Source: Dehalococcoidia bacterium
Lineage (GTDB): Bacteria; Chloroflexota; Dehalococcoidia; Bin125
Length of the DNA stretch: 64,000 nt
Assembly: GCA_965261715.1 (NCBI GenBank)
Contig: OZ253471.1
Span: 624,763 to 688,762 of the forward strand
Reading direction: 5' to 3'
Shown here in pieces: positions 4,252-64,000 of the stretch. The notes under the pieces were generated by a model, which was not told the origin of the DNA, did not search any database, and was given only the letters and a program-made list of their open reading frames with translations. A program made the translations under genes and the position numbers. Numbering within the stretch: position 1 is the first letter of the stretch; the number at the start of each line of letters is the position of its first letter.

Positions 4252-4347
4252 CGTCCCCGTCCCCGCCACCGAGCGGGGACCTGTTCCCTCTCGCGGTGGA
4301 TGCAGGCGTGGGCCGAGCGGGTCCCCGCTCGGTGGCGGGGACGGGAG
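4252..4347. repeat. 96-bp element with perfect 25-bp terminal inverted repeats (cccgtccccgccaccgagcggggac ... gtccccgctcggtggcggggacggg)
   Basis: The arms are exact reverse complements. Each arm also contains its own 7-bp sub-palindrome (tccccgc/gcgggga). It lies in the divergent intergenic region between 4193 and 4408. Confidence 0.7.
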
Positions 4348-12574: not shown

Positions 12575-12705
12575 CCGATGTGTTAACCTGATGGAAGATT
12601 GAAGCCGGGGTGGTCCGACCGTTAACACACGGGGTTCGGGCCTGAGAACACACCCGCTGAACCTGATCCGGGTAATGCCGGCGCAGGGAGCAAGCGCAGC
12701 AGCCA
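12575..12705 (+). ncRNA. TPP (thiamine pyrophosphate) riboswitch
   Basis: Contains the conserved THI-element cores ...ggggtggtcc...cctgagaa...acccgctgaacctgatccgggtaatgccggcgcagggag..., immediately upstream of thiD. Confidence 0.85.
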
Positions 12706-12753
12706 TCAGGCCCACCCGCAAGACAGTCGACCGCCCACACGCGGGAGCATTCC

Positions 12754-13566
12754 GTGCGCGTCGTCCTTTCGATTGCGGGATCCGATTCCTCCGCCGGGGC
12801 CGGCATCCAGGCCGACCTCAAGGCTGCCTCGCAGTTCTACGGCTGTTACGCCGCGACCGTCATCACCGCTGTCACCGCGCAGAACACACTCGGGGTTCAA
12901 GACGCGTTTCAACTGCCCACCTGGATCGTTCGGGCGCAGATCGAGTCGGTGTGTTCCGATCTCAACGTCGCCGCGGTCAAGACAGGCATGTTGGGAGATT
13001 CTGAGATGATCAATGTGGTGGCCGACGAGCTGGGCGAGCGGAAGCCGCCCAAGATCGTTGTTGATCCGGTCATGATCTCCAAGACCGGCTTCCCGCTGCT
13101 GGCCGAGGACGCCGTTGAGACATTCAAGAATCGGATTGTTCCCCTGGCGACCTTGATTACGCCCAACACCCATGAAGCCGAACGGCTGACCGGGATCGCC
13201 GTGCGCACCATCGATGAGGCGAAGCAGGCAGGAATGGCGCTGCTTGACATGGGCGCAAGTGCCGCGCTCGTCAAAGGTGGTCACCTCGCAGAAGCGCCGG
13301 GCACAGACGTATTGGTCGCCCCGGAGGGCGTAGAAGTCATCGCCGGCGAATGGATCGACACCAAGCACACCCACGGCACCGGTTGCACCTATGCGTCGGC
13401 CATCGCTGCCCGCCTCGCCTACGACTGGAACCTGAGTCTTCACGAGTGCATTGAGGACGCAAAACTCTGGCTTACGGAGGCTATTCGCTATGGGCTGAAC
13501 CTCGGACACGGCGTCGGGCCGACCCAACCGTTCTGGGGCCAGGAGTGGGGACCGTGGAACGACTAG
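12754..13566 (+). CDS. thiD: Hydroxymethylpyrimidine/phosphomethylpyrimidine kinase
   Basis: MRVVLSIAGSDSSAGAGIQADLKA...VKTGML...HGTGCTYASAIAA, a ribokinase-fold ThiD signature. Confidence 0.85.
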   Translation: MRVVLSIAGSDSSAGAGIQADLKAASQFYGCYAATVITAVTAQNTLGVQDAFQLPTWIVRAQIESVCSDLNVAAVKTGMLGDSEMINVVADELGERKPPKIVVDPVMISKTGFPLLAEDAVETFKNRIVPLATLITPNTHEAERLTGIAVRTIDEAKQAGMALLDMGASAALVKGGHLAEAPGTDVLVAPEGVEVIAGEWIDTKHTHGTGCTYASAIAARLAYDWNLSLHECIEDAKLWLTEAIRYGLNLGHGVGPTQPFWGQEWGPWND

Positions 13567-14210
13567 CGAGCGCGAAGGAAATCGGCCGTCTCCACGTGAT
13601 CACCGACGAGGTGTTGCAGACGCGATTCACGCACGTCGAGTTGGCGGCAATGGCAGCCGCCGGCGGCGCGGACGTCATCCAATATCGCGAGAAGCGGCCG
13701 TTGTCGACGCGAGCCATGATCGACGTCGCCCGGCAGATGGACGAGCAAATTGTTTCACGTGAAACAATAGTTCTAGTTGATGACCGCGTCGATATCGCTG
13801 TCGCAGTCGGTGCGACCGCCGTGCATTTGGGCCGCGACGATTTGCCGCCCGACGTCGCGCGACAGATTCTTGGCGAGGCCGCGATCATCGGCGGTACTGC
13901 GAACTCGGTTGAAGACGCAGTCAGGGTGGCCGCACAACCAGTCGATTACATCGGTGTCGGCCCAGTGTTTGGCACGACTTCAAAGGGAGATCGCGCCGCC
14001 CCGATGCTTGGCCTTGAGCGATTCGCTGAAATCTGCGACGCAGTGGAGAAACCCGTGATCGGCATTGGCAGCATTACCGTCGATCGTGTCGCCGATGTCC
14101 TGTCTGCTGGCGCATACGGTGTGGCGGTGCTCTCGGCGGTGGTCTGCCAGGAGGACCCCGAGTCGTCATGCCGGGCATTCGCCACCGAGATCAGGCGGGT
14201 GCTGTCATGA
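13545..14210 (+). CDS. thiE: Thiamine-phosphate synthase
   Basis: …LHVITDEVLQ…VIQYREK…IGVGPVFGTTSK…GIGSIT… matches TMP-TenI family motifs. Confidence 0.8.
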   Translation: MGTVERLASAKEIGRLHVITDEVLQTRFTHVELAAMAAAGGADVIQYREKRPLSTRAMIDVARQMDEQIVSRETIVLVDDRVDIAVAVGATAVHLGRDDLPPDVARQILGEAAIIGGTANSVEDAVRVAAQPVDYIGVGPVFGTTSKGDRAAPMLGLERFAEICDAVEKPVIGIGSITVDRVADVLSAGAYGVAVLSAVVCQEDPESSCRAFATEIRRVLS

Positions 14211-15379
14211 CCAATGGTTCCGCCGTCAATCATCTACCAACAACCGAAGTCGCCGTCGTCGGTGGCGGCGTGATTGGTCTGTCCTGCGCGTTCGAACTGG
14301 CGCGTCGCGGCAAGTCGGTCGCCGTGATCGAGCGCGAAGAGACCGGATTCGGCGCGTCCACCGTGGCGGCTGGGATGCTGGCCCCGTCCTCAGAGATTGA
14401 GATGACGCCGGCGCCGGTGGTTGAGCTGCAGCTCGACAGCCTGAAACGCTATCCGCAGTTCATCGCCGATATTGAGGCCGCCAGCGGACTGTCCTGCGGC
14501 TACCGAGACAACGGCACGCTCTGGGTCTCGCGGCATCGCGACGACGAGCTTGAGCTCGATCACCTCTGCGCAATCCAGAACGACCGCGGCATGACCGCGA
14601 GGAGGCTCACGGGTCGGGAGCTCCGGCGCATCGAGCCGTATCTGTCGCCCCGCGCCGTGGGTGGGCTGCTCGTCGAGACCGACCACCAGGTTGACACTCG
14701 CAAACTGGTCCCCGCACTGCGCGCTGCCTGTGAAGCGGTCGGGGTCGACATCGTCGTCCAAACCGGTGTGACCACGGTTGAGGAAACACAGGGACAACTC
14801 AGTCTTGCCTTGCACACAGCGACATCGGACTCGATCCTGCAGGCCGATCAGGTACTGCTGGCCGCCGGCGTCTGGCTTGAAGACGGCCTCGTGACGCCGC
14901 TGCCGCGCATCGGGATGCGACCGATCAAGGGCGAGATCGTCCACCTCCAGGGCCAGCCACTCATCGACCATGTGCTGCGCAACAGCGACATCTACATCAT
15001 TCCCCGTGCCGGCGGCGAGTTGCTGCTCGGCGCGACCGAGGAGGAGCAGGGATTCGACATGAATCCGACCGCAGGCGGCGTGCTCGATCTGTTGCGCTAC
15101 GCCTTTGAGATTCTGCCCGGCATCTACGACCTCAACGTGACTGAACTCGATGTCGGTCTACGACCCACGTTCTCGGACCACATGCCGGTGATCGCTCCGA
15201 CCGAAACTGAAGGCATCTTCATCGCCGGTGGCCACTACCGGGGCGGCATTCTGCTCGCTGCAAGCACGGCGCATTGGATGGCCGAGATCATGGTCAACGG
15301 CCGGGTACCGCAGGAGGTCGAGGCCTTCGGACTTGAGCGATTGCTCCAACAACAACGAATGCTGGAGGTGGCCGGATGA
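14207..15379 (+). CDS. thiO: FAD-dependent glycine oxidase
   Basis: N-terminal Rossmann motif VAVVGGGVIGLSCAFELARRG. DAO-family length. ATGA start/stop overlap with thiE. Sits in a thiS/thiG context. Confidence 0.7.
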   Translation: MTNGSAVNHLPTTEVAVVGGGVIGLSCAFELARRGKSVAVIEREETGFGASTVAAGMLAPSSEIEMTPAPVVELQLDSLKRYPQFIADIEAASGLSCGYRDNGTLWVSRHRDDELELDHLCAIQNDRGMTARRLTGRELRRIEPYLSPRAVGGLLVETDHQVDTRKLVPALRAACEAVGVDIVVQTGVTTVEETQGQLSLALHTATSDSILQADQVLLAAGVWLEDGLVTPLPRIGMRPIKGEIVHLQGQPLIDHVLRNSDIYIIPRAGGELLLGATEEEQGFDMNPTAGGVLDLLRYAFEILPGIYDLNVTELDVGLRPTFSDHMPVIAPTETEGIFIAGGHYRGGILLAASTAHWMAEIMVNGRVPQEVEAFGLERLLQQQRMLEVAG

Positions 15380-16596
15380 GTCAGGAGTGGGATGTTGCCG
15401 TACTTGGTGGTGGGGTGATTGGTCTCACCTGCGCCTTCGAACTGGCGCGCAGGGGTCAAAAGGTGGTTGTCATCGAACGCGACCAGCCCGGCCAACAGGC
15501 CAGCCGCGTCGCCGCTGGACTGCTCGGCACGGCCGCGCTTCCGCTGGGCGAACAGGACGACATCTTTCCGCTCAAGCTGGACAGCCTGCGGCGATATCCG
15601 CAGTTCATCGCCAAAGTCGAGTCGATCGGCCGGATGAGCGCTGGGTTCCGGATAGACGGCACGCTCTGGGTGGCGAGAGACGCCGACGAAGATGAGCAGC
15701 TTGAACTGCTGTACAACGAGCGGACGCAACAGCACCTCAGATCGCAGCGCGTGACGGCGAGCGAGATCTTTCCGCTCGAGCCTGAGTTGGCGCCCGGGCT
15801 GGTCGGCGGTCTGCTGGTCGAGGAGGACATTCAGGTTGATCCGCGCCGACTGCTCGCGGCATTGGAGCGGGCGGTCACCAACGTTGGAGCGAAGCTCTAC
15901 ACAGATCACGAGGCGGTTGGCGGCGAGTACGACGAGTCGGCAGAAGCGTGGAGCATCCAACTACGCAGCCAACCACTCAGCCAACCACTCAGCCAACCAC
16001 TCAGCCAAGCAGGGGGCGAGGAACATGACTCGATCCGCGCCCGCAATGTGCTGATCACGGCCGGACCCTGGTGCGACCAGATCATCGACACCGCCAACGA
16101 GGCGGGCTCGCCCTTGTCGCCAACGGGCGTCGGACCGGTTAAAGGACAACTCCTGCGGTTGCGAGGGCCGCGAATCATTGACCGCGTCATCCGCACGACC
16201 AACATCGACCTCGCCCAGCGTCGCGACGGTGAGCTGATCGTCGCATCGACGAAGGAACCGGAGGCCGGCTGGGATCTGACGCCGACCGAGGAGGCCCGCG
16301 AAGAACTCCTGACCCGAGCCTCGGGCCTGATTCCGCGGCTGCGAGAACTCGACTTGGATGAGCACAGCGTGGGTCTGCGGCCGGCCGTCGAGGATCACCT
16401 GCCGATCATTGGTTCGGCCGGTCGCCCAGGATTGTGGGTCGCGACCGGACACTACCGACACGGCATCCTGCTCGCTCCGGCGACAGCCTTCTGGCTGGCT
16501 GAGGCGATGGAATCGGGACAGGTACCGGACGCAATCTCGGCGTACGGGCTTGAGCGGCTGGGAATGTCGCAGTTGAACTTGGAGGCGGCATCGTGA
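15376..16596 (+). CDS. Second FAD-dependent glycine oxidase paralog (ThiO-like) carrying a PLSQ x3 insertion
   Basis: VAVLGGGVIGLTCAFELARRG. Collinear with the upstream thiO. Contains an in-frame 12-nt x3 repeat (caaccactcagc) encoding QPLSQPLSQPLSQ at 15962-16003. ATGA overlap with thiO and GTGA overlap with thiS. Confidence 0.65.
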   Translation: MSQEWDVAVLGGGVIGLTCAFELARRGQKVVVIERDQPGQQASRVAAGLLGTAALPLGEQDDIFPLKLDSLRRYPQFIAKVESIGRMSAGFRIDGTLWVARDADEDEQLELLYNERTQQHLRSQRVTASEIFPLEPELAPGLVGGLLVEEDIQVDPRRLLAALERAVTNVGAKLYTDHEAVGGEYDESAEAWSIQLRSQPLSQPLSQPLSQAGGEEHDSIRARNVLITAGPWCDQIIDTANEAGSPLSPTGVGPVKGQLLRLRGPRIIDRVIRTTNIDLAQRRDGELIVASTKEPEAGWDLTPTEEAREELLTRASGLIPRLRELDLDEHSVGLRPAVEDHLPIIGSAGRPGLWVATGHYRHGILLAPATAFWLAEAMESGQVPDAISAYGLERLGMSQLNLEAAS

Positions 16597-50637: not shown

Positions 50638-51453
50638 ATGGCACTGACACGGATTCACCACATCGGCATCGCCGTACACGACGCGGACAAGACGGCTGAG
50701 GTCTGGCGCGATACGTTCGGTCTTGAGACCGCACTCGACACCGAGCTCGAATCGCAAGGCGTCCGCGGGGTGATTTTCCCGCTCGACAACTGCGAAATCG
50801 AACTGCTCCAGCCAACGCGTGACGACACCGGCATCTCCAAATACCTGGAGGCCAACGGCGAGGGTTTTCACCACATCTGCTTCGAGTCGACGGATGTTGG
50901 CTCGGACCTGATCGCTGCCAAAGCGAGCGGGATGGAGATGATCGATGAGGAGCCACGGCAGGGATTGACCGGAATGATTGGGTTCATCCATCCGAAGTCA
51001 AATCACGGCGTGTTGATCGAGTACGCGCAGCCTCCCGATGACGCTGCGCAGCATTCGGGCCCGGCATCGGGACCGGGTCCACACGCGCTGCACCATATGA
51101 CGGTGGCAGTCAGCGACGTGGCGCCGGTGCAGGACAAGTGGACCGAACGCTATGGATTGGCTCCGGGACGACACCTGGAATCAGAGGCCCTGGGGCTGGA
51201 GGCGCAGTTCCTGGGCATTGGACCGACAGACATCGAGCTGGTGCGTCCATTGCCGGGCAGCGGCGGTCCGTTGCCGCGCAAGCTCGATCAATCGGGCGAG
51301 GGCATGTTCATGCTCGCGCTGACCGTGCGTGACGCTGCGGCATCGGTCGACTATCTGCGCGGCGAAGGCTGGACCGTGACCGACGCCAACGCCGGCGCGT
51401 TTATTTCTCCCAAACACACGTATGGAACTCGGCTGCGGCTGTCCGAGGCTTAA
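50638..51453 (+). CDS. Methylmalonyl-CoA epimerase-like VOC protein (tandem glyoxalase-fold domains)
   Basis: …IHHIGIAVHDADKT…GEGFHHICFESTD… and a second VOC module (…HHMTVAVSD…), in a mutase gene context. Confidence 0.7.
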   Translation: MALTRIHHIGIAVHDADKTAEVWRDTFGLETALDTELESQGVRGVIFPLDNCEIELLQPTRDDTGISKYLEANGEGFHHICFESTDVGSDLIAAKASGMEMIDEEPRQGLTGMIGFIHPKSNHGVLIEYAQPPDDAAQHSGPASGPGPHALHHMTVAVSDVAPVQDKWTERYGLAPGRHLESEALGLEAQFLGIGPTDIELVRPLPGSGGPLPRKLDQSGEGMFMLALTVRDAAASVDYLRGEGWTVTDANAGAFISPKHTYGTRLRLSEA

Positions 51454-54730: not shown

Positions 54731-55774
54731 GTGCGCCCGGAGCATGTTGTGACCTTGCCGACCGACCGCCGCATCCGCGAAATCGGCCGGAGGGTGGCTC
54801 GCCAACTGGTCGAGAGCGTCGGATCGGGCGCTGGTCGCCAGCTCGTCGTTGCCGTATCGGGTGGCGCCGACTCATCTGCCCTGCTCCTCCTGCTGACCGA
54901 CACGCAATCTCGACATGGATGGCGAGTTCGCGCTGCGCACGTTGACCATCTGATTCAGACCGGATCGGTCCGCGCCGAGTTCTGCACCTCCGCCGGCGAG
55001 CTGGCCAACACAGCCGGCGTGCCGTTCGACATCATCGAGGCCGACGCCTCGTCGGAAGCCGCCTCGTCCTCAGATAGCCTGGAAGCTGCCGCGCGGCGCG
55101 TCCGGTATCGAGCGTTGAACGACCTGGCGCTCGCGTTCGGGGCGCCAGCGGTCGCCACTGCTCACACGCAGAACGATCAGGCCGAGACAGTCTTGTTGCA
55201 CATCCTGCGTGGATCGGGACTCGATGGGCTGAGTGCGATGCCTCCGGTGCGTCCGTTGAGCGACGAAGTGGCGTTGGTGCGACCGATGCTCGATGTGACC
55301 CGGGCCGAGACCGAGTTCGTCTGTCTGGCGTACGGCTGGACACCCGCGCACGATCCATCCAACGACGACCTGATTCACACGCGAAACCGTGTGCGACGGT
55401 CGCTCTTGCCGTTGATGCAGGCAATCAATCCGAATGTCTCCGAGCGATTGGCGGACCTGGCCCGGTCCGTTGGGTCCGATCGAGAGCTGCTTGATCTGGT
55501 TGGGCGACAGGCGCTGGAGCAGATTCTTGACGAGGACGGCGGGCTGCCTCGACGCGTGTTTCTCTCGCTGCCCGGTCAGTTGCAGGTCAGAGTGATCCGG
55601 TCGTTCACCCAGGCCCAGGGGGTGACGCTGTCGTCCGAGCGGACGGCGTCGGCGCTGCAGGTGATTCACAACGGGCATGGCCTGGTCGAGCTGCCAGAGG
55701 GCGTCTGTCTGCGCGTGGCGGGCGGTGTGGTGACGATCGAGGGAAGTAGTCCACCGGACATTACGGGCGGTTGA
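54731..55774 (+). CDS. tilS: tRNA(Ile)-lysidine synthetase
   Basis: PP-loop VAVSGGADSSALLLL; 347 aa. Confidence 0.85.
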   Translation: MRPEHVVTLPTDRRIREIGRRVARQLVESVGSGAGRQLVVAVSGGADSSALLLLLTDTQSRHGWRVRAAHVDHLIQTGSVRAEFCTSAGELANTAGVPFDIIEADASSEAASSSDSLEAAARRVRYRALNDLALAFGAPAVATAHTQNDQAETVLLHILRGSGLDGLSAMPPVRPLSDEVALVRPMLDVTRAETEFVCLAYGWTPAHDPSNDDLIHTRNRVRRSLLPLMQAINPNVSERLADLARSVGSDRELLDLVGRQALEQILDEDGGLPRRVFLSLPGQLQVRVIRSFTQAQGVTLSSERTASALQVIHNGHGLVELPEGVCLRVAGGVVTIEGSSPPDITGG

Positions 55775-55808
55775 CTTCTTGGATCGTGGCGGGCTAAGAT
55801 TGTCTTCT
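55773..55808 (+). promoter_or_regulatory. Candidate sigma70-type promoter upstream of 16S rRNA (TTGACT-18-TAAGAT)
   Basis: ttgacttcttggatcgtggcgggctaagat, about 230 nt upstream of the mature 16S 5' end. Confidence 0.4.
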
Positions 55809-56031
55809 GCGCAAATGAAGAACGCACCGCTCGGCAAGAAGCCTGATGAGCGTTTCGCAGATGCCAGCCTTAACAATTGGAGAGCGGAAGTCCAGTGTGC
55901 TTGGGGAGCCCCCCCAAGTCCGGACACAAAAATCGTTGCGATTCCTTTGGGAGTGGCAGCGGTCGCGATGTCCGAACAATCTCTACTTTTGCAGCCGGCA
56001 TGACCGGCTGAACCAATGGAGAGTTTGATCC

Positions 56032-57512
<1,481 letters not shown>

Positions 57513-57762
57513 TAGGGAGAATGCCGATCGACCCCGCCTCGGTGGGAATCGGTCGAGCTCCCAGGTCGATCCGCCAGCCTCTATCACCAGTGCTTGCATT
57601 GCTGAGCGAGGCGCCCTGAGGCCGACGCCCCTAACACGGGCGGACGCCAACGAGTCAACGGCGTGATTATGGTTTCACAAGCGCACTGACTTTCGCTCTC
57701 CAACGGTTAAGGCCGACCCCCGGGCCGCGATTCCGACCGAATCGCGGACCCGAGGCCATCCC

Positions 57763-57839
57763 GGGCCATTAGCTCAGCAGGTTAGAGCGCAGTCCTGATA
57801 AGACTGAGGTCCCTGGTTCGAGTCCAGGATGGCCCACCA
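57763..57839 (+). tRNA. tRNA-Ile (GAT)
   Basis: gggccattagctcagcaggttagagcgcagtcctgataagactgaggtccctggttcgagtccaggatggcccacca. Confidence 0.9.
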
Positions 57840-57954
57840 ACCAGAAGACTCCCGTCCAATGAACAGGCGGGAGTTTTTCGCGTCCAGCGGCCTGCAGGGT
57901 CACATTTCGAGTCCGGCGATGCAAAGCCTCGCCAGGCGCTAAAGTAACGATCCC

Positions 57955-58030
57955 GGGGCCGTAGCTCAGCCGGGAGAGCGCCGCCCTTGCACGGCGGAGG
58001 TCAGGGGTTCGATTCCCCTCGGCTCCACCA
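57955..58030 (+). tRNA. tRNA-Ala (TGC), intact copy
   Basis: ggggccgtagctcagccgggagagcgccgcccttgcacggcggaggtcaggggttcgattcccctcggctccacca. G3:U70 and encoded CCA. Confidence 0.9.
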
Positions 58031-58069
58031 CTCCCAGATCCTTGGATTCCACGAGATGGAAGCGGCACG

Positions 58070-58474
58070 ATGAGTGACGACGCGCCCGCTGATCAGCCAG
58101 ACCAGCGCCCCGGCCGGATCGGCTGGCAGGACCTGACCGTCGACAATGCGGAGGTCGTGCGCGACTTCTACAGCGAGGTCGTTGGTTGGAAGACGATGCC
58201 GCTCGACATGGGCGGCTACGACGACTACGTGCTGCTCAGCCCCGACGGCCAGGCCGGCGACGGCCAGGCCGGAATCGCGGGAGGCTGCCACGCCCGAGGA
58301 GTCAACGCCAATCTCCCGCCACAATGGCTGATCTACGTCAACGTCGAAGACCTCGACGCCAGCTTGAAGTCCCTGGGAGGCAGCATCGTGGATGGGCCCA
58401 GGGAGATGGGTGAGGGTCGGTTTTGTGTCATCAGAGATCCGGCAGGCGCGGTCTGTGGATTGATTGAGCAGTAG
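58070..58474 (+). CDS. VOC-family (glyoxalase/bleomycin-resistance fold) protein
   Basis: …IGWQDLTVDNAEVVRDFYSEVVGWK…GRFCVIRDPAGAVCGLIEQ is a typical single-module VOC protein. Starts 40 nt after tRNA-Ala. Confidence 0.6.
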   Translation: MSDDAPADQPDQRPGRIGWQDLTVDNAEVVRDFYSEVVGWKTMPLDMGGYDDYVLLSPDGQAGDGQAGIAGGCHARGVNANLPPQWLIYVNVEDLDASLKSLGGSIVDGPREMGEGRFCVIRDPAGAVCGLIEQ

Positions 58475-58562
58475 CTCAGTCGGCTTAGGTTCTCCATGTT
58501 CACAGGCGCGGGACGATGGCGGCCTGCGGTCGGAGCGGGCTATATTGGTCTCGCGATACCGG

Positions 58563-58994
58563 TTCATGGAGATTGAAGTGGGTGAGATCATCGTCGAGAT
58601 TGAGCTGGAAAATGCCGAGGACCGATCGGACGCGCGCCGCGGACGGATCGACGAGGCGTCGGTGCGGCGGGAAAAGGTGCAGGCAGTCGCGGACACCGGC
58701 GCGGTGATGCTGGCGCTGCCCGAGGATGTAGTGGAGGGACTCGGACTGCCAACGGTCCGGACGCTGACGAGCACATTCGCCGACGGTCGACGCGGTCAAT
58801 TGCCGATCGCCGGGCCGCTAACGATCCAGATCGGAGACCGACAAATGCTGACGGAGTGCATCGTCGTGCCCGAGGGCGCCGAGGCGCTGGTCGGGCAGGT
58901 CGTGATGGAGACCCTGGACTTGATTCCCGACCCCATGAATCAGACGCTAGGCCCAAGGCCGAAGTCGCCAGATCGTTCGTTGCTGCGGGTGTAG
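58563..58994 (+). CDS. Retropepsin-like (clan AA) aspartic protease
   Basis: Catalytic motif ADTGAVMLALPEDVVEGLGL (D-T-G-A). The true start is likely ATG 58563 (MEIEVGEIIVE...) rather than the overlapping 58464. Confidence 0.55.
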   Translation, partial: FMEIEVGEIIVEIELENAEDRSDARRGRIDEASVRREKVQAVADTGAVMLALPEDVVEGLGLPTVRTLTSTFADGRRGQLPIAGPLTIQIGDRQMLTECIVVPEGAEALVGQVVMETLDLIPDPMNQTLGPRPKSPDRSLLRV

Positions 58995-59098
58995 GGATTA
59001 TCGGCTGCATCGTTTCGCGCAGGCTTTTGCAATAGGGTCCAGTGAGGTGGAGATTCGGACGCGCGTCGGATCGGATCGGGCGCTACGCTGGGGATGCA

Positions 59099-59174
59099 CG
59101 GGCCGTAGCTCAGCTGGGAGAGCGCCGCTCTTGCACGGCGGAGGTCAGGGGTTCGATTCCCCTCGACTCCACTA
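59099..59174 (+). pseudogene. Second, degenerate tRNA-Ala(TGC) copy (tRNA-like remnant / att-like duplicate)
   Basis: cgggccgtagctcagctgggagagcgccgctcttgcacggcggaggtcaggggttcgattcccctcgactccacta. Has C1 instead of G1, a C5-A68 mismatch, and ends CTA instead of CCA. Otherwise about 93% identical to the copy at 57955. Confidence 0.6.
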
Positions 59175-59207
59175 CTTGGACATAAGTATTGTGTGCGGGA
59201 TAGACGA

Positions 59208-60971
59208 ATGCAAATCAAGGAACTCCACGTTCAACGTTTCCGGGGGTTCTCGGAAATCAAGATCCGACCTCGCGGGAACGTCGTTTTGATGGGAGAACCC
59301 GGCGCTGGACGCACTGACCTTTTCGAAGCGTTGAGCAGACTTCTGAACTTCTATCAAGGTCGCAATCGCGAGATCAGTGAGTTGGACTTCCACTTGGGAG
59401 ACTGCAGCGAACCAATCAGAATATCGGTCACGCTAGGTGATCTTGACATCGACCTCGAACAGGATTTCTTCGACCACTTGGAACTATGGGACGAAACTGA
59501 TCGTTGCTTGATCGATGAAGCCCAGAATGGTCAATTGGACGACCGAGCCGATTGTTCATGGGCATTCAGAATAACGTACGAGGCTCGCTGGCTGCAGGAC
59601 GAAGCAATGCCAGAGGACCGGGTGTTCTTTCCGAAAGACTCCGATCCTGAGTCCGGAATATTTGCCCGTGTCCGGCGCAATGACCTTGAGGCTCTTGGCT
59701 TTGGTCTGCTCCGCCCGGGGAGCACAGGGATGCTCGAATTGGGCCCACGTAGTGACTTTCGCAAACTGGTTGATGTCGCAAATGGTGACGATTTCGGGGC
59801 AGCTATGAGAAAATATGTCAACGAGGTCGGCATAGCGGCGGAGAACTTCAGTCACTCTGACCAGGTGCAAGCGGCAGTCGCAAGAATTGTTGCGCTAACG
59901 GGTGAGCTTCAAGGAATCCCGAACATTGATCCGAGCACTTTCATCCAATTTGCCCCTGATGACGGTTCTGAAAGCGGCTTACTGCGCTCTCTCGGAGCTG
60001 CAGTGGACTTTGACGATGGAGTCGGACAGCTACCAGCCTGGCGGCACGGATCATCTACCAGATCGCTTCTGAAGGTCGCTGAAGTGGTCGCTGCGGCCAA
60101 AAGCCCCAAACCAGTCTTGGTCATTGATGACCTCGGAGACGGAATGGATGCACCGTCTGCAGCGCATCTAGCTGCTGCGCTGTGCGAAACAGCCAGCCAA
60201 GTGTGGGTAACCACGCGGATACCCGCGGTTGCAGAAGTATTCCAACCTCAGGAAGTGCTGCGCCTCGGAAAAGGGAAGGCCGGGAAGAGAACGCTGCACA
60301 GCGGAACACACGCAATTAAGCCCGAGGAAGCTGCGATGTACAAGCACTGGCATCGAAACCTGTTGCCAGCTTTGACCTATCGAAGCGTCATAATAGTTGA
60401 AGGGCCTCACGACTTCGTCGCCTTGCACACACTTGCTCTCCGGCTGCATGAAGAACGTGGTACCGCCCTTCCTGCGACACACAAAATAGCAATTGTCAGC
60501 GCAGGCGCAAGTGGTGACGGCGGATACGCAACAGTGATGAAGTTGGCTCGGCAAGCCAAATCAATGGGTCTATTTGCGGTTGGCGCAGTTGACGGCGACT
60601 CCGATCCGGCTTCCCTGAAATACATCGAGACAAACTTAGAAATGGCTGACTCTGTAGTGCGGCTTCCTCGTCGGTTCGCAATCGAAAAGGCTCTCGTTCA
60701 CGACATTCCGGATAGCGTCCTCATGAGCGTTGTTCAGGATCTTGAGAACGCAGTAAACATGGAGAACACCAACGTGCAGCCTTCGGATGGCGGAGATATA
60801 CACAAGAAGGCAATGGCCCTTCTGAAGAAGGAATCACTGCACGGGCCCTTCATCGACCTACTCCCAGCAGAACACCTGCCCCCTCTCGCCTGCCGATACT
60901 TAGGGACCTTAGTTGGCGCCGCTAGAGGCGACTCAGCAGGATTGATTCAACTTTGCAAATCAACGACCTAA
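59208..60971 (+). CDS. gajA: OLD-family ATP-dependent endonuclease (ABC-type ATPase + C-terminal TOPRIM), Gabija GajA-like
   Basis: N-terminal MQIKELHVQRFRGFSEIKIRPRGNVVLMGEPGAGRTDLFEAL (P-loop, with Arg in the usual Lys position). Walker B-like VLVIDDLGDG. C-terminal TOPRIM: IIVEGPHDF (Glu) and AVDGDSD (DxD). GC about 50% vs the window's roughly 65% background. ATG 59193 is an alternative start. Confidence 0.75.
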   Translation: MQIKELHVQRFRGFSEIKIRPRGNVVLMGEPGAGRTDLFEALSRLLNFYQGRNREISELDFHLGDCSEPIRISVTLGDLDIDLEQDFFDHLELWDETDRCLIDEAQNGQLDDRADCSWAFRITYEARWLQDEAMPEDRVFFPKDSDPESGIFARVRRNDLEALGFGLLRPGSTGMLELGPRSDFRKLVDVANGDDFGAAMRKYVNEVGIAAENFSHSDQVQAAVARIVALTGELQGIPNIDPSTFIQFAPDDGSESGLLRSLGAAVDFDDGVGQLPAWRHGSSTRSLLKVAEVVAAAKSPKPVLVIDDLGDGMDAPSAAHLAAALCETASQVWVTTRIPAVAEVFQPQEVLRLGKGKAGKRTLHSGTHAIKPEEAAMYKHWHRNLLPALTYRSVIIVEGPHDFVALHTLALRLHEERGTALPATHKIAIVSAGASGDGGYATVMKLARQAKSMGLFAVGAVDGDSDPASLKYIETNLEMADSVVRLPRRFAIEKALVHDIPDSVLMSVVQDLENAVNMENTNVQPSDGGDIHKKAMALLKKESLHGPFIDLLPAEHLPPLACRYLGTLVGAARGDSAGLIQLCKSTT

Positions 60972-62593
60972 AGCCATCGCAACAAGAAGTCATCAACGCA
61001 CTGCTGGGCGATGCCTCGAGGGTGCTCGTTGCTGGCGGTCCTGGAACTGGAAAAACCACGACGGCGCTGTGGGCAGCTCGCTCCTTTTTAGAGGCCGACC
61101 ACGACAACATCCCCAATCGCGTTCTGTTCTTAACATTCTCACGATCGGCGGTCGATCAGATCCAGAAGCGCTGTCCGGCAGCACTCGCGGGGTATGAAGA
61201 TAGGGTCGAAGTATCGACATTCCACGCCATCGCGTACCGCCTTATCCGTACATTTGGCCGATATGGTGGCCTTGGCAGGGAACTGCCAGCGATCCAATCA
61301 AGGGCATCGGAAAAGCTGTTTCAGCGAGACCGAAGTGCATACAGTTACGACGATTTGCTCCCGACTGCAACAGCACTCTTGGAAGGCAGCGAATTGGTCC
61401 GGCGTATTGTGTCAAATCGCTGGGGGCTGTTAATATGTGATGAGGTGCAAGACACGTCCTCGGAGCAGTGGCAATTCTTGCAGCTGCTATCGTCGAATGA
61501 GCTTCTATTGTTGGGTGACCTCGGGCAGATGATATACGGTTGGCTTCCAGGTGTATCGGTAGATACGTTCCACGATATGAAAGAACAGGTTGATGTTACT
61601 TTACATCTCGCGGCATCTTCTTTTCGAGATCCCTCCGGTGCGATTCCAGGATTGGCCGATGCAGTCAGAACGCGGCAATTCGATCACGGGGCAGTGCACA
61701 ATGCTCTGGAAGAGCAGCGTTTGATCGTCGTGCCAGATACGGGTAACGATATGGTGCCGGGAAATCTGATCAAGTTGGTAGAGAGTGCAAGGGCACCGAG
61801 ACATGAAGATGTCGGTATCTTTGCCGCGGACAACGAGACGGTCGCCCAGATAGGGGTTCACCTGCACGATGCTGACATCGATCATGTTCTGGTAGGAATT
61901 CCTGAGGCTCACGGTGAGGCTTTGGCGGCAATGGTTGCACAAATCTCCTTTGCGGTGGGGTTGATTGGTCAAGAAACTCTTCGGCACGCAATGGCGTTGT
62001 TTGTCACGGCCTGCGCAAGAGGATCTAGTGTTCCAGTGTTGGCACATAAGCTTGTCGGGAGAATGCCCTTGACGCAGACAGAGGAGTTAGCACTGTGGAG
62101 GCAGGAAAGATCGCTCGCGGCTGCCGGGATGGGTACGGTTGGAGGAGTGGCTCAGGCCGCGAGCGAATGTTGGAGCGGATTGCCTATCGGGTCCGCGGTG
62201 CGACCTTGGCAGCGCGCGGTCCGGCATTTCATGCGCTTGATGGGGCGGGATCGGGCTCTGTCCGCGTCCGGCGACATTGTATCGGTCTTGAAGCAGGTCG
62301 TCGAGGTTGGAAGAGCCGAGTCTCTAGTGGATTTGAATTATTTTGAGCGCGGTCGCGTGATGCTGATGACCTTGCATCAGACCAAGGGTCGGGAAGTCGA
62401 TACGGTGATTCTCGTGTTTCGCTCGGAAGATTACTTCGGCCGAGAAGGAGAACCATTCGAAGATTCTTCGCGGCTTCTCAACGTGGCGATTTCGCGAGCT
62501 CGCAAACGCGTCATAGTCGTGGTCCCATCTGATCCTCATCCGCTCATAGCACCGTTCCAGACTCTAGCTCAGGGAGGTAGCTTCAAGTTGTGA
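60953..62593 (+). CDS. gajB: UvrD/PcrA-like SF1 helicase, Gabija GajB-like
   Basis: Motif I VLVAGGPGTGKTTTAL. Motif II LLICDEVQD. Motif III LLLLGDLGQMIY. Motif VI VMLMTLHQTKGREVDTVILVF. Overlaps gajA by 19 nt (operon). Confidence 0.75.
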   Translation: MQINDLKPSQQEVINALLGDASRVLVAGGPGTGKTTTALWAARSFLEADHDNIPNRVLFLTFSRSAVDQIQKRCPAALAGYEDRVEVSTFHAIAYRLIRTFGRYGGLGRELPAIQSRASEKLFQRDRSAYSYDDLLPTATALLEGSELVRRIVSNRWGLLICDEVQDTSSEQWQFLQLLSSNELLLLGDLGQMIYGWLPGVSVDTFHDMKEQVDVTLHLAASSFRDPSGAIPGLADAVRTRQFDHGAVHNALEEQRLIVVPDTGNDMVPGNLIKLVESARAPRHEDVGIFAADNETVAQIGVHLHDADIDHVLVGIPEAHGEALAAMVAQISFAVGLIGQETLRHAMALFVTACARGSSVPVLAHKLVGRMPLTQTEELALWRQERSLAAAGMGTVGGVAQAASECWSGLPIGSAVRPWQRAVRHFMRLMGRDRALSASGDIVSVLKQVVEVGRAESLVDLNYFERGRVMLMTLHQTKGREVDTVILVFRSEDYFGREGEPFEDSSRLLNVAISRARKRVIVVVPSDPHPLIAPFQTLAQGGSFKL

Positions 62594-62730
62594 AGGGAGT
62601 GACGAGTGCAGGCCTCCTCTTTGGAGACCGTTTGCGGGTAGAGGCCGCATGTTGAGAAGTGTTCCCATCTGCTTTGTTGTTGCCTGGTTTATCGATTGCG
62701 GCTGTCAGCGCCGTGCTAAGATTTCTGGGA

Positions 62731-62847
62731 GCTGGTGATTGGAGCGCGGTGGCCCCACCCGTTCCCATCCCGAACACGGAAGTGAAACGCCGCAGCGCTG
62801 ACGATACTGGGGGGGCAACCCCCTGCGGAAAATAGGCCATCGCCAGC
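62731..62847 (+). rRNA. rrf: 5S ribosomal RNA
   Basis: gctggtgattggagcgcggtggccccacccgttcccatcccgaacacggaagtgaaacgccgcagcgctgacgatactggggggcaaccccctgcggaaaataggccatcgccagc. Helix I closes between the two ends. Confidence 0.9.
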
Positions 62848-62865
62848 TCGCTCTTTTCCTGCTCC

Positions 62866-62900
62866 CGCCCGACCTCGTGTCGGGCGGTTTTCGTTTCACC
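62866..62900 (+). terminator. Rho-independent terminator after 5S rRNA
   Basis: cccgcccgacctcgtgtcgggcgg followed by ttttcgtttc. Confidence 0.7.
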
Positions 62901-62977
62901 CAGCGACGCCGATTCGTCCACTGCCTCTGGAGGATGTCTCGCAAGTCCCCCTGCCGCTGCCGGGTTTCCAGGCTGAA

Positions 62978-63053
62978 CCCCGAGCGGGTCCCGGCTCGGA
63001 GGCCGGGACTGTGTGACGCGAACGGGTCCCGGCTCGGAGGCCGGGATTGGGAG
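62978..63053. repeat. Tandem pair of a 23-bp hairpin unit (gggtcccggctcggaggccggga) in the rpsA leader region
   Basis: The unit occurs twice, 15 bp apart. Each contains the inverted repeat tcccggc/gccggga. Confidence 0.6.
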
Positions 63054-63280
63054 TGATGAGACATTGCCCCTGTGGTACGATTTGGCAAACCCCAGAAAGG
63101 AGACGGGCAGGATTTCAGCGTCCGCGACGCTCACCATCCTGGGCGTGAGGCGCACCACTGAATCCTGCCCTACTCACCAAACCGTTGACGACACCTAGCA
63201 CTGACATCGCGTCCACCACCGCCACGGCCGAAGTTCCCCAGGAACCGCTAGCGCCCGTGGCGGCCAAAGAACCCACCACC

Positions 63281-64000
63281 ATGGACGAGCTCCTGGCCGA
63301 ACCCGGTCGGGAGCCGCTGAACCCCAGACGTGGCGACATCGTTGAAGGCATCGTCGTGCACTGGACCGGTACGGCCCTGATCGTTGATGTCGGCGCCAAG
63401 TCCGAGGGCATCGTCCACTTCGAGGAGATGCGCTCGCTGACCGACCAGGAGCGTGAGGCGCTCAAGACCGGCGATCCCGTCCACGTTTTTGTCACGGACT
63501 CCGAGTCGGAAGGCGGCTCGCTTGAGTTGTCCATTGACCGCGCCCGCGGCGAGCAGGGTTGGCATGAGCTGCAGCGCCGCTTCGACGAGAACGATGTCTT
63601 CGACGGCCGCGTGACCGGCTCGAACAAGGGTGGTCTGCTGGTCAACGTCGAGGGCGTCAACGCCTTTGTCCCGCTCTCGCAGATTGTCGAAATCACCGGT
63701 GACCGCGATCAGGCGATCGCACAGTTGGCTGAGTACGAAGGTCGCACGCTGCGGTTCAAGGTCATTGAGATCAACCGCCGCCGCAACCGCGTCATCCTTT
63801 CTGAGCGCGCCGCCGTCCAGGAATGGCGCGCCGAGCAGAAGGACCGCCTGCTGGAAGAGCTCCAGGAAGGCGAAATCCGCGCTGGCCGGGTCACGAGCAT
63901 CCGTTCATTCGGTGTGTTCGTCGACCTCGGAGGCGCTGATGGCCTGGCGCATCTCTCCGAGCTGAGCTGGGAACGCGATGTCGACCCCGAGGCGATGTTT
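63281..64000 (+). CDS. rpsA: 30S ribosomal protein S1, 5' portion (runs off window end)
   Basis: …RGDIVEGIVVHWTGTALIVDVGAKSEGIVHFEEM…VFDGRVTGSNKGGLLVNVEGVNAFVPLSQI…GRVTSIRSFGVFVDLGGADGLAHLSEL… are successive S1 domains. No stop before the window end, hence absent from the ORF track. GTG 63257 is an alternative start. Confidence 0.8.
   Translation, partial: MDELLAEPGREPLNPRRGDIVEGIVVHWTGTALIVDVGAKSEGIVHFEEMRSLTDQEREALKTGDPVHVFVTDSESEGGSLELSIDRARGEQGWHELQRRFDENDVFDGRVTGSNKGGLLVNVEGVNAFVPLSQIVEITGDRDQAIAQLAEYEGRTLRFKVIEINRRRNRVILSERAAVQEWRAEQKDRLLEELQEGEIRAGRVTSIRSFGVFVDLGGADGLAHLSELSWERDVDPEAMF

Follow-up and report, generated by a model that had tools for sequence, protein, structure and literature searches.

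How does an anti-phage defence operon come to lie within a ribosomal RNA (rRNA) operon, in the place where the 23S gene would be expected? The question is posed by a 64-kb stretch of a Dehalococcoidia genome of sponge-associated type (Chloroflexota; contig OZ253471.1), called the window here, in which the 16S rRNA, tRNA-Ile and tRNA-Ala genes are followed by four co-oriented protein-coding open reading frames (ORFs), interrupted by a second, degenerate tRNA-Ala, and then by a 5S rRNA gene with its terminator. Two of the four ORFs resemble gajA and gajB, the genes of the Gabija system. An earlier note on this DNA had described this order, including the lack of a 23S gene, and Rfam, ARAGORN and blastn searches bear the description out. 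The explanation we favour, which taken as a whole we consider likely, is that an ancestral operon was fragmented within this clade, that its remaining RNA genes would now be expressed as separate units, that the gaps between them have become a hotspot for exchangeable cargo and that the Gabija pair is an acquired cassette in one of these gaps. Gabija itself, unlinked rRNA genes in Dehalococcoidia and, as general background, defence hotspots between conserved genes are already known. A full-text literature search returned no description of a defence hotspot in an rRNA operon; nor did we find described a relic rRNA locus in this role, with tRNA-Ile, tRNA-Ala and 5S as flanks, a cargo border at the 5S promoter and 5S kept with the 16S side.

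All features of the window given below lie on its + strand and are numbered by position in it; RNA genes were called with Rfam and ARAGORN. The 16S gene is full length (56013-57511; RF00177, 1536.6 bits, model positions 1-1533) and is bracketed by a 26-nucleotide (nt) inverted repeat, I1 (arms 55867-55892 and 57688-57713, 88% complementary), which would form an RNase III-type processing stem of the kind usual in rRNA operons. tRNA-Ile(GAT) follows at 57763-57839 (ARAGORN and Rfam), and an intact tRNA-Ala(TGC) with G3:U70 and an encoded CCA at 57955-58030 (70 bits; Rfam and ARAGORN). The 5S gene is also full length (62731-62848; RF00001, 88.1 bits, model positions 1-120). The 23S gene that a canonical operon carries between its spacer tRNAs and 5S is missing from the window: a permissive Rfam scan of 57400-63300 found no 23S fragment, blastn with the 23S of a relative as query gave no match anywhere in the 64 kb, and the 16S has no 23S within 6.5 kb on its 3′ side or 56 kb on its 5′ side, the distances that the window spans. 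A recent in-place deletion that left stubs of 23S is ruled out, there being no remnants by Rfam or blastn.

The comparative series shows how old this arrangement is. We fetched 80 loci around the S1 (rpsA) protein in species-representative genomes and mapped the window features onto them (loci are labelled L followed by a number). All but one come from metagenome-assembled genomes (MAGs) of Dehalococcoidia or Chloroflexota, many of them complete chromosomes and several with sponge-MAG names. In outgroups, whose 16S is 82-84% identical, the approximately ten loci that cover the whole operon have the canonical order 16S-tRNAIle-tRNAAla-23S-5S-rpsA, and Rfam finds a full 23S and a further tRNA before 5S in one of them, L063. 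Basal members of the clade (L040, L041, L046, L047, L049, L050 and L052; 16S 89-93%) have a compact 16S-tRNAIle-tRNAAla-5S arrangement without 23S, in which 32-64 nt separate tRNA-Ala from 5S. In L020, L029, L036, L038, L039 and L042 the interval from tRNA-Ile to tRNA-Ala is filled by 3.7-6.3 kb of genes. In the relatives closest to the window, L003 and L043 (16S 99.6%) and L007 (97.5%), the cargo lies, as in the window, between tRNA-Ala and 5S and amounts to 1.3-3.8 kb, and many further genomes show tRNA-Ala, cargo and 5S without a 16S within 10 kb. All six clade loci scanned with Rfam lack 23S, and blastn for 23S among the clade loci matched L008 and L034 only. On the strength of this series, the canonical operon next to rpsA is ancestral and was fragmented within the clade in more than one way, and the loss of 23S from the locus long predates the arrival of Gabija. 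The suggestion in the earlier note that Gabija had disrupted the operon, displacing 23S, is therefore not sustained, since the 23S-less layout is ancestral to the clade and also exists in compact form.

Two loci complicate this history. In L008 (1-9712) and L034 (1649-7311), both from assemblies with short-read-style contig names, 5S-rpsA is preceded not by 16S-tRNAIle-tRNAAla but by 23S-tRNAMet, some genes and tRNA-Glu, a layout that implies rearrangements with breakpoints adjoining tRNA genes. The retention of 23S-tRNAMet in these loci rules out a history with a single loss of 23S; fragmentation was more complex. In L008 a TrkH gene adjoins 23S-tRNAMet. A homologue of this TrkH, identical to it in sequence, is listed on a contig of 3,612,147 bp, and the GajA of the window is likewise listed on a contig of 3,612,147 bp, which we took as the chromosome of the window. 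The sole readable contig with the exact TrkH protein, L087 (locus 1-21302), has the order DUF169, HigB-like toxin gene, 23S, tRNA-Met, TrkA, TrkH, aminotransferase and tRNA-Glu; its 23S is full length (12603-15603, - strand, 2622 bits), and neither 16S nor 5S is present in the 21.3 kb fetched around it. Adjoining the tRNA-Glu of L087 are a large serine recombinase, helix-turn-helix genes and a tyrosine integrase, which together look like an integrated element.

L087 is thus a stand-alone 23S locus, in line with the unlinked rRNA genes of Dehalococcoidia. Brewer et al. (10.1101/705046) reported that unlinked rRNA genes of Bacteria and Archaea, with 16S and 23S more than 1500 bp apart, are phylogenetically clustered and that Dehalococcoidia are among the groups concerned; the term '5S rRNA' is never used in that preprint, and we take 5S linkage to be outside its scope. 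The separation of 16S from 23S is common to both cases. What sets the present case apart is that 5S stays with the 16S-tRNA block beside rpsA while 23S-tRNAMet stands alone, that canonical, compact, cargo-bearing and 23S-retaining variants all occur in one clade, and that the remnants have apparent promoters and a terminator of their own. We propose that the ancestral 16S-tRNAIle-tRNAAla-23S-(tRNA)-5S operon beside rpsA broke up, that 23S now lies in a distant locus of its own and that 16S-tRNAIle, tRNAAla and 5S are what was left behind.

We then consider the identity of the pair that now occupies the locus. The gajA-like gene (59208-60971) encodes 587 amino acids (aa) and the gajB-like gene (60953-62593) 546 aa. 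Profile searches, which the earlier note had proposed as a check, place the two proteins as GajA (best PADLOC GajA model, 1.8e-33) and GajB (PADLOC, 6.6e-52). For the GajB-like protein Pfam agrees strongly (UvrD-helicase 2.4e-28, UvrD_C 4.7e-8), and for the GajA-like protein the Pfam OLD-like TOPRIM and AAA matches are weak. A single-sequence search with the GajA-like protein against the PDB gave no match, which is why a family profile and a structure prediction were needed. With a profile of 17 family members, the best PDB match was GajA of Bacillus cereus (BcGajA; 2.4e-7), ahead of a class 2 OLD nuclease, and the alignment pairs the VEGPxD of the family with the LLIEGPSE of BcGajA, which holds the catalytic E379. 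The AlphaFold model of the GajA-like protein (predicted local distance difference test score 76.6, predicted template modelling score 0.72) has the predicted fold of an ABC ATPase head with an inserted dimerisation region and a C-terminal TOPRIM domain. Its top Foldseek matches in the PDB are the GajA structures 8u7i, 8x5i and 8sm3 (E 9e-19 to 1.5e-17), followed by class 2 OLD 6p74 and by TsOLD and retron Eco8 OLD proteins. Template modelling scores are only ∼0.5, which may be due to the multi-domain nature of the protein and to low-confidence segments of the model.

The active-site residues allow a closer comparison. In BcGajA the TOPRIM site comprises the invariant E379, G409 and D432xD434 (PMC10781630). 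The GajA-like protein has E398 (in VEGPxD), D402, D462xD464, E493 and G433/G438-G439, all invariant in the 17 family members, so that the predicted active site is complete; these residues are the counterparts of the Glu, Gly and DxD site described there. The Walker A motif departs from that of GajA. The family reads GEPGAGR[ST] (residues 29-36; GEPGAGRT here), in which R35 aligns with the Lys of GMNDIGKT in BcGajA; the Lys of a canonical Walker A is absent, and the Arg is nearly invariant in the subfamily (in at least 90% of the 17 aligned sequences). Of the two GajA hallmarks that the earlier note had read in the sequence, the TOPRIM signature thus stands and the canonical P-loop does not. 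Its reading of gajB, with superfamily 1 (SF1) helicase motifs and a 19-nt overlap with gajA, fits our data. The motifs GGPGTGKTTT, CDEVQDTS, LLLGDxxQ, HQTKGRE and VAISRAR are kept in homologues, and both Gx4GK-TT and DExQD can be recognized among them. Homologues can be aligned with the protein from its first residue onwards, which supports the TTG start at 60953, and the overlap is as long as 19 nt because GajA has five extra C-terminal residues here; in homologues it is 4 nt.

The Gabija system of B. cereus VD045 (PMC10781630) provides the natural comparison. Both consist of two adjacent, co-oriented genes, an OLD-family ATPase-TOPRIM gene and then a UvrD-like helicase gene; both first proteins combine an N-terminal ABC-type ATPase with a C-terminal TOPRIM domain that has the Glu, Gly and DxD residues, and both second proteins have Gx4GK-TT and DExQD. 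The window pair differs in its low identity (10-16% in the structural alignment with GajA), in the subfamily-wide Arg of Walker A, in the 19-nt overlap and in the TTG start. Judged by these features, the two genes constitute a divergent, recognizable and apparently intact Gabija pair, made up of a class 2 OLD protein and a UvrD-like SF1 helicase. By homology to characterized Gabija, the products would form a nucleotide-sensing DNA nuclease/helicase complex that restricts phage.

Composition and distribution both bear on where the pair came from. The cassette (59173-62710) has a GC content of 54.5%, the lowest of any 3.5-kb stretch in the window (median 62.8%), and GC at third codon positions (GC3) is 55-57% in gajA and gajB versus 75-80% in tilS and the glyoxalase-like and protease-like genes. 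No match to either gene was found by tblastn in the 80 related loci, those of the relatives with 99.6%-identical 16S included. The nearest GajA homologue has 52% identity. Homologues with 50-52% identity were each followed by a UvrD-like gene in the three neighbourhoods, on four contigs, that we examined; these neighbourhoods are 56-59% GC and rich in resolvases and transposases, and include a GmrSD gene. Low GC and GC3, absence from the 80 loci and a nearest homologue at only 52% identity make gajAB look foreign to this genome and horizontally acquired, as the earlier note had supposed from GC content.

The slot that gajAB occupies holds different genes in different relatives. From 31 related loci we took the ORFs lying between tRNA-Ile and tRNA-Ala and between tRNA-Ala and 5S, and searched those of low GC or large size with Pfam and PADLOC. 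Defence cargo recognized by PADLOC was present in 16 of 32 cargo-bearing loci, the window included, and falls into 12 types. Besides Gabija, the cargo comprises Septu PtuA/PtuB (L029; 4.7e-40 and 6.5e-26); a type II methylase with a partner gene (L009 and L010, 2.2e-50 to 6.7e-53, and L022 by homology); an OLD-family ATPase-TOPRIM protein (L015, 1.2e-15); AbiU/AIPR (L023, 7.7e-174); a SIR2-like protein (L025, 5.1e-9); PD-Lambda-5 A and B between two tRNA-Ala copies (L044; 3.6e-117 and 5.9e-113); PDC-S20, a KAP NTPase (L048, 8.8e-110); a CBASS cyclase with a Cap15-type two-transmembrane effector (L032; 8e-97 and 6.3e-36); type I HsdM with PDC-S19 (L016; 4.4e-274 and 6.8e-135); a 1475-aa protein whose N-terminal region is TmtA-like and whose C-terminal part is a helicase (L036, L039 and L042; 2.4e-54); and a Mokosh MkoA-like nuclease-helicase (L038, 2.4e-39). 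We argue from the 16 of 32 loci that defence genes are enriched in the slot, an argument from counts and not a statistical comparison with the genome background. Non-defence cargo also occurs, including a sulfatase, binding proteins and, in L020, a B12 transporter. In the last of these (L020:5000-8610, between tRNA-Ile and tRNA-Ala) a cobalamin riboswitch (97 bits) precedes genes for a periplasmic-binding protein and an ABC ATPase, so the hotspot also takes regulated metabolic cargo. These comparative data show the gaps between the RNA genes to be a lineage-wide hotspot for accessory genes, often anti-phage ones.

Turnover at the slot is fast. The window, L003 and L043, whose 16S genes are at least 99.6% identical and whose 5S genes are 99-100% identical (100% between the window and L003), have three unrelated low-GC inserts directly 5′ of 5S. 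In L003 (7607-9501; 16S 99.6% identical) the gajAB slot holds three co-oriented low-GC ORFs (141, 397 and 92 aa; GC 51-60%), and searches of the 141- and 397-aa ORFs against Pfam and PADLOC matched nothing; the three are a candidate for an uncharacterized defence system. The same slot in L043 (7727-9493) holds ∼1.7 kb of ∼51% GC without a long ORF, which may be decayed cargo or a non-coding element. Homologous proteins of ∼390 aa lie in the slot in L008 (8126-9274) and L004 (5513-6700). Neither has a PADLOC match, and the L008 protein has weak Pfam matches to AAA_assoc_C (3.5e-5) and CAP12/Pycsar TIR (7.7e-4); these proteins may be another defence candidate.

Alongside this changing cargo there are resident genes. 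The glyoxalase/VOC-like gene of the window (58070-58474; Pfam Glyoxalase 1.7e-4) has homologues (69-86% aa identity) at the same slot in 16 loci by tblastn and a GC3 of 0.80. The neighbouring retropepsin-like gene (58546-58994; gag-asp_proteas PF13975, 7.6e-7, with ATG 58578 as an alternative start) has homologues in ∼9 loci, often as tandem paralogues. Both are resident cargo of native composition, and neither protein matches a PADLOC family. In the window (57955-58994) and in the 16 related loci they belong to a recurring module consisting of a tRNA, ∼40 nt, the glyoxalase-like gene and often one to three tandem retropepsin-like genes; the tRNA is usually tRNA-Ala, in L008 it is tRNA-Glu, and L032 has three retropepsin-like genes. 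The degenerate tRNA-Ala(TGC) of the window (59099-59172; Rfam 56 bits) is a probable pseudogene that forms the left edge of the low-GC cassette. It has the acceptor-stem mismatches C1-C72 and C5-A68 and a CTA tail in place of CCA, retains G3:U70 and is ∼95-96% identical to the intact copy over the tRNA (87% over a repeat of 98 nt when the flank before it is counted in). In L003 and L043 a paralogous tRNA-Ala copy comes after the protease paralogue; window 58578-59176 is 74% identical to L003 5943-6547, and window 57949-58992 is 89% identical to L003 6464-7493. The simplest history would be a tandem array of tRNA-Ala-led modules that was resolved differently in each lineage, with gajAB gained later in the last slot.

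If the RNA genes at this locus are separately expressed, signals for their separate transcription might be expected, and conserved candidates for such signals are found. A promoter-like site (TTGACT-18-TAAGAT, 55771-55800; an inference from a consensus scan) precedes 16S. Directly 3′ of tRNA-Ile is a terminator-like hairpin with a U-run (57844-57879; -18.9 kcal/mol, z -3.8), equal in stability to the terminator of 5S. Because of a bulge in the stem it escaped the consensus scan for terminators, and folding recovered it. Its stem (ACTCCCG/CGGGAGT) and T-run are kept in L003, L043, L007 and L020 and are absent in the compact basal relatives. Next comes a -10-like box, TAAAGT (57940-57945), 9 nt 5′ of tRNA-Ala, a putative promoter of this gene; of 29 cargo-clade loci, 28 have a TAnnnT box (consensus GCGnTAnGCT) ∼9-16 nt 5′ of tRNA-Ala, against a background of 1.5% per 17-nt window, and the box is missing where tRNA-Ala abuts tRNA-Ile. 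The putative dedicated promoter of 5S is an extended -10 box, TGCTAAGAT (62714-62722), which ends 8 nt 5′ of the mature 5S end. As TGnTAnnnT it is present in all 41 cargo-clade loci and in the window (background 0.24% per 22-nt window) and in none of six compact basal loci, where 5S directly follows tRNA-Ala. The box marks the right edge of the variable slot, with homology between the window and its relatives resuming at 62711-62729, 2-20 nt 5′ of 5S. An intrinsic terminator with a 9-bp GC-rich stem and TTTTCGTTTC (62865-62887; scan, -18.8 kcal/mol, z -4.0) follows 5S. Taken together, these conserved signals suggest three separate units, [P-16S-tRNAIle-T], [P-tRNAAla...] and [P-5S-T], of which the first probably ends at the hairpin at 57844-57879. 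The position that the earlier note gave gajAB, between the 16S-tRNA block and 5S, is thus correct as a physical order, and its placement inside one rRNA transcription unit is not what the separate-unit signals indicate.

How gajAB itself is expressed is a matter for conjecture. A -10-like box, TACGCT (59084-59089), which matches the clade consensus GCGnTAnGCT, lies 9-10 nt 5′ of the degenerate tRNA-Ala and is a candidate gajAB promoter. Because the degenerate copy keeps this box and stands 35 nt before gajA, much as the intact tRNA-Ala stands 39 nt before the glyoxalase gene here and likewise in many relatives, we propose that gajAB might be expressed from the retained tRNA-type promoter, a speculative idea to which we give somewhat less than even weight. 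Mixed tRNA-protein operons exist, for example thrU-tyrU-glyT-thrT-tufB of Escherichia coli, and the present arrangement resembles that operon in that a tRNA or tRNA-like gene is followed, 35-40 nt on and in the same orientation, by a protein gene, with no promoter between. It differs in that the tRNA before gajA is degenerate, leaving it a role as promoter or 5′ leader only, and in that co-transcription is putative.

Could the locus be an artefact, or the pair something other than a defence system? rRNA genes are classic points at which metagenome assemblies break and join, the source is a MAG and the GC shift starts exactly at a tRNA-like repeat; the earlier note had raised mis-assembly across rRNA repeats. 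A chimeric contig, in which a 16S-tRNA end is joined to an unrelated Gabija-5S segment, is nonetheless barely credible to us, and mis-assembly in general is very unlikely. The exact GajA and GajB proteins also occur on an independent 21-kb contig (European Nucleotide Archive assembly), whose name suggests a long-read assembler. Its identity with the window is 99.993% across 14.8 kb, the sole difference being a G-run indel at 51134, outside the region; as this contig is identical over the whole 16S-to-rpsA stretch, the order tilS-16S-Gabija-5S-rpsA-clpB has been assembled twice. Stronger evidence than the second contig is that the junctions recur: dozens of relatives, many of them represented by complete chromosomes, show the same junction types, and the flanks tilS-16S and 5S-rpsA-clpB are syntenic with those of the nearest relatives, L003 and L043, with only the cargo between them differing. 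As for function, the pair might instead be a class 2 OLD/UvrD-like module for DNA repair or housekeeping. The remote similarity to characterized GajA and the replacement of the Walker A Lys by Arg would suit such a module, which we regard as very improbable given that the best profile and fold matches are to Gabija proteins, that the pair is missing from close relatives and foreign in composition, that mobile elements and defence genes abound around its homologues (resolvases, transposases, GmrSD) and that relatives have other defence systems in this slot.

The route of insertion and the mode of transcription leave more room for other readings. The left edge of the cassette coincides exactly with the 3′ end of the tRNA-Ala copy, L003, L043 and L044 have cargo flanked by tandem copies of tRNA-Ala, and recombinase and integrase genes adjoin a tRNA gene at the stand-alone 23S locus, by tRNA-Glu in L087; gajAB might accordingly be what is left of an integrative island that targeted and duplicated tRNA-Ala and then lost its integrase. 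We think this unlikely. The slot of the window (58031-62730) contains no integrase, excisionase or transposase, nor any other recombinase. Among 93 further ORFs of related loci a resolvase was matched once, and the 25 matched families listed, out of 44, include no integrase. Moreover, what is repeated at the near border is the full-length tRNA together with the box before it, unlike the short 3′-end att repeat of a tRNA-targeted island, no tRNA-derived repeat above the 14-nt reporting threshold is found at the 5S border, and the repeat is paralogous to the post-protease copies of L003 and L043 and therefore predates gajAB. Exchange of cargo by homologous recombination in the conserved RNA flanks would be a further, speculative route; no sign of recent exchange of this kind was seen in five pairwise comparisons of four shared cargo families, in which nucleotide identity was below that of rpsA. 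As to transcription, the genes from 16S to 5S all lie on one strand, the consensus scan finds no terminator between tRNA-Ala and that of 5S, and the gajB-5S region is not significantly structured, so that gajAB might be co-transcribed with rRNA from the strong 16S promoter and its mRNA made by read-through and processing, as the earlier note had envisaged in placing the genes under a very strong promoter. We hold this to be improbable: the strong hairpin and U-run after tRNA-Ile are kept in cargo-bearing relatives, -10 boxes occur at fixed distances before tRNA-Ala and 5S in the cargo-bearing clade only, with a further box before the degenerate copy, and cargo lies on the opposite strand in L044, L048 and L032. 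Since the cargo is antisense in these three loci, expression of 5S there is independent of sense read-through from cargo. gajAB thus probably lies outside the rRNA co-transcript and the control of the rRNA promoter.

Several of our own results weigh against the explanation we favour, that of a fragmented operon with separate units and an acquired Gabija cassette. The GajA-like protein was invisible to the single-sequence PDB search and is only 10-16% identical to B. cereus GajA, a very low similarity, and its Walker A Arg may mean that nucleotide handling, through ATP binding or hydrolysis, differs from that of canonical GajA. The tRNA-Glu-linked 23S-tRNAMet of L008 and L034 does not follow the simple scheme. 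The slot lacks an integrase, and cargo shared between lineages bears no mark of recent exchange. The promoters, terminator and transcription units are inferred solely from folding and from the conservation of motifs; folding shows no evident terminator between gajB and 5S, the consensus scan found none between tRNA-Ala and gajA, and read-through from upstream units, and from gajB into 5S, is possible.

A bolder extension is that this rRNA-operon relic works as a platform for the expression and exchange of defence genes, with the RNA genes (16S, tRNA-Ile, tRNA-Ala and 5S) as anchors, tRNA-Ala copies, even degenerate ones such as 59099-59172, kept as promoter or leader modules that drive the cargo (here gajAB) and minimal promoters of their own for the RNA genes. 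We offer it tentatively and think it less likely than not. If it were true, those minimal promoters would insulate ribosome synthesis from the turnover of cargo. Defence hotspots and islands between conserved core genes have been described for the pangenomes of E. coli and Pseudomonas aeruginosa, and the present locus shares with them conserved flanks, variable, often low-GC and often defensive cargo and few mobility genes; here, by contrast, the flanks are RNA genes of a former rRNA operon (tRNA-Ile, tRNA-Ala and 5S), and the right border is the 5S promoter.

What appeared to be an oddity, a defence operon inside an rRNA operon, becomes in this setting a testable evolutionary pattern. A single clade presents graded states, from the intact operon through the compact 16S-tRNA-5S arrangement to separately promoted RNA genes with variable cargo; these bear on rRNA stoichiometry after the breakage of an operon, a question that arises from work on unlinked rRNA genes, and yield promoter and terminator candidates that can be tested. 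The hotspot is easy to locate through its flanking RNA genes, so the slot can be mined for new defence systems in uncultured, sponge-type Dehalococcoidia. The Gabija subfamily whose Walker A motif has exchanged Lys for Arg matters for the question of how GajA senses nucleotides.

Some minor features of the window complete the description. An apparent third tRNA fragment at 58468-58483 (repeat D4) proved to be the conserved end of the glyoxalase gene, its stop codon included, with the bases just after it; the same is seen in L003, and we attribute the resemblance to chance. Just 3′ of the 5S terminator, short GC-rich palindromic repeats, GGTCCCGGCTCGGAGGCCGGGA, stand in tandem at 62981-63011 and 63019-63049. 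A variant pair of GGTCCCGGCTCGGAGGCCGGGA palindromes lies at 4260-4341 and copies occur in L043, giving these elements the look of repetitive extragenic palindromes. Finally, a thiamine pyrophosphate riboswitch at 12596-12706 (60 bits) is of an ordinary kind and has no bearing on the Gabija locus.

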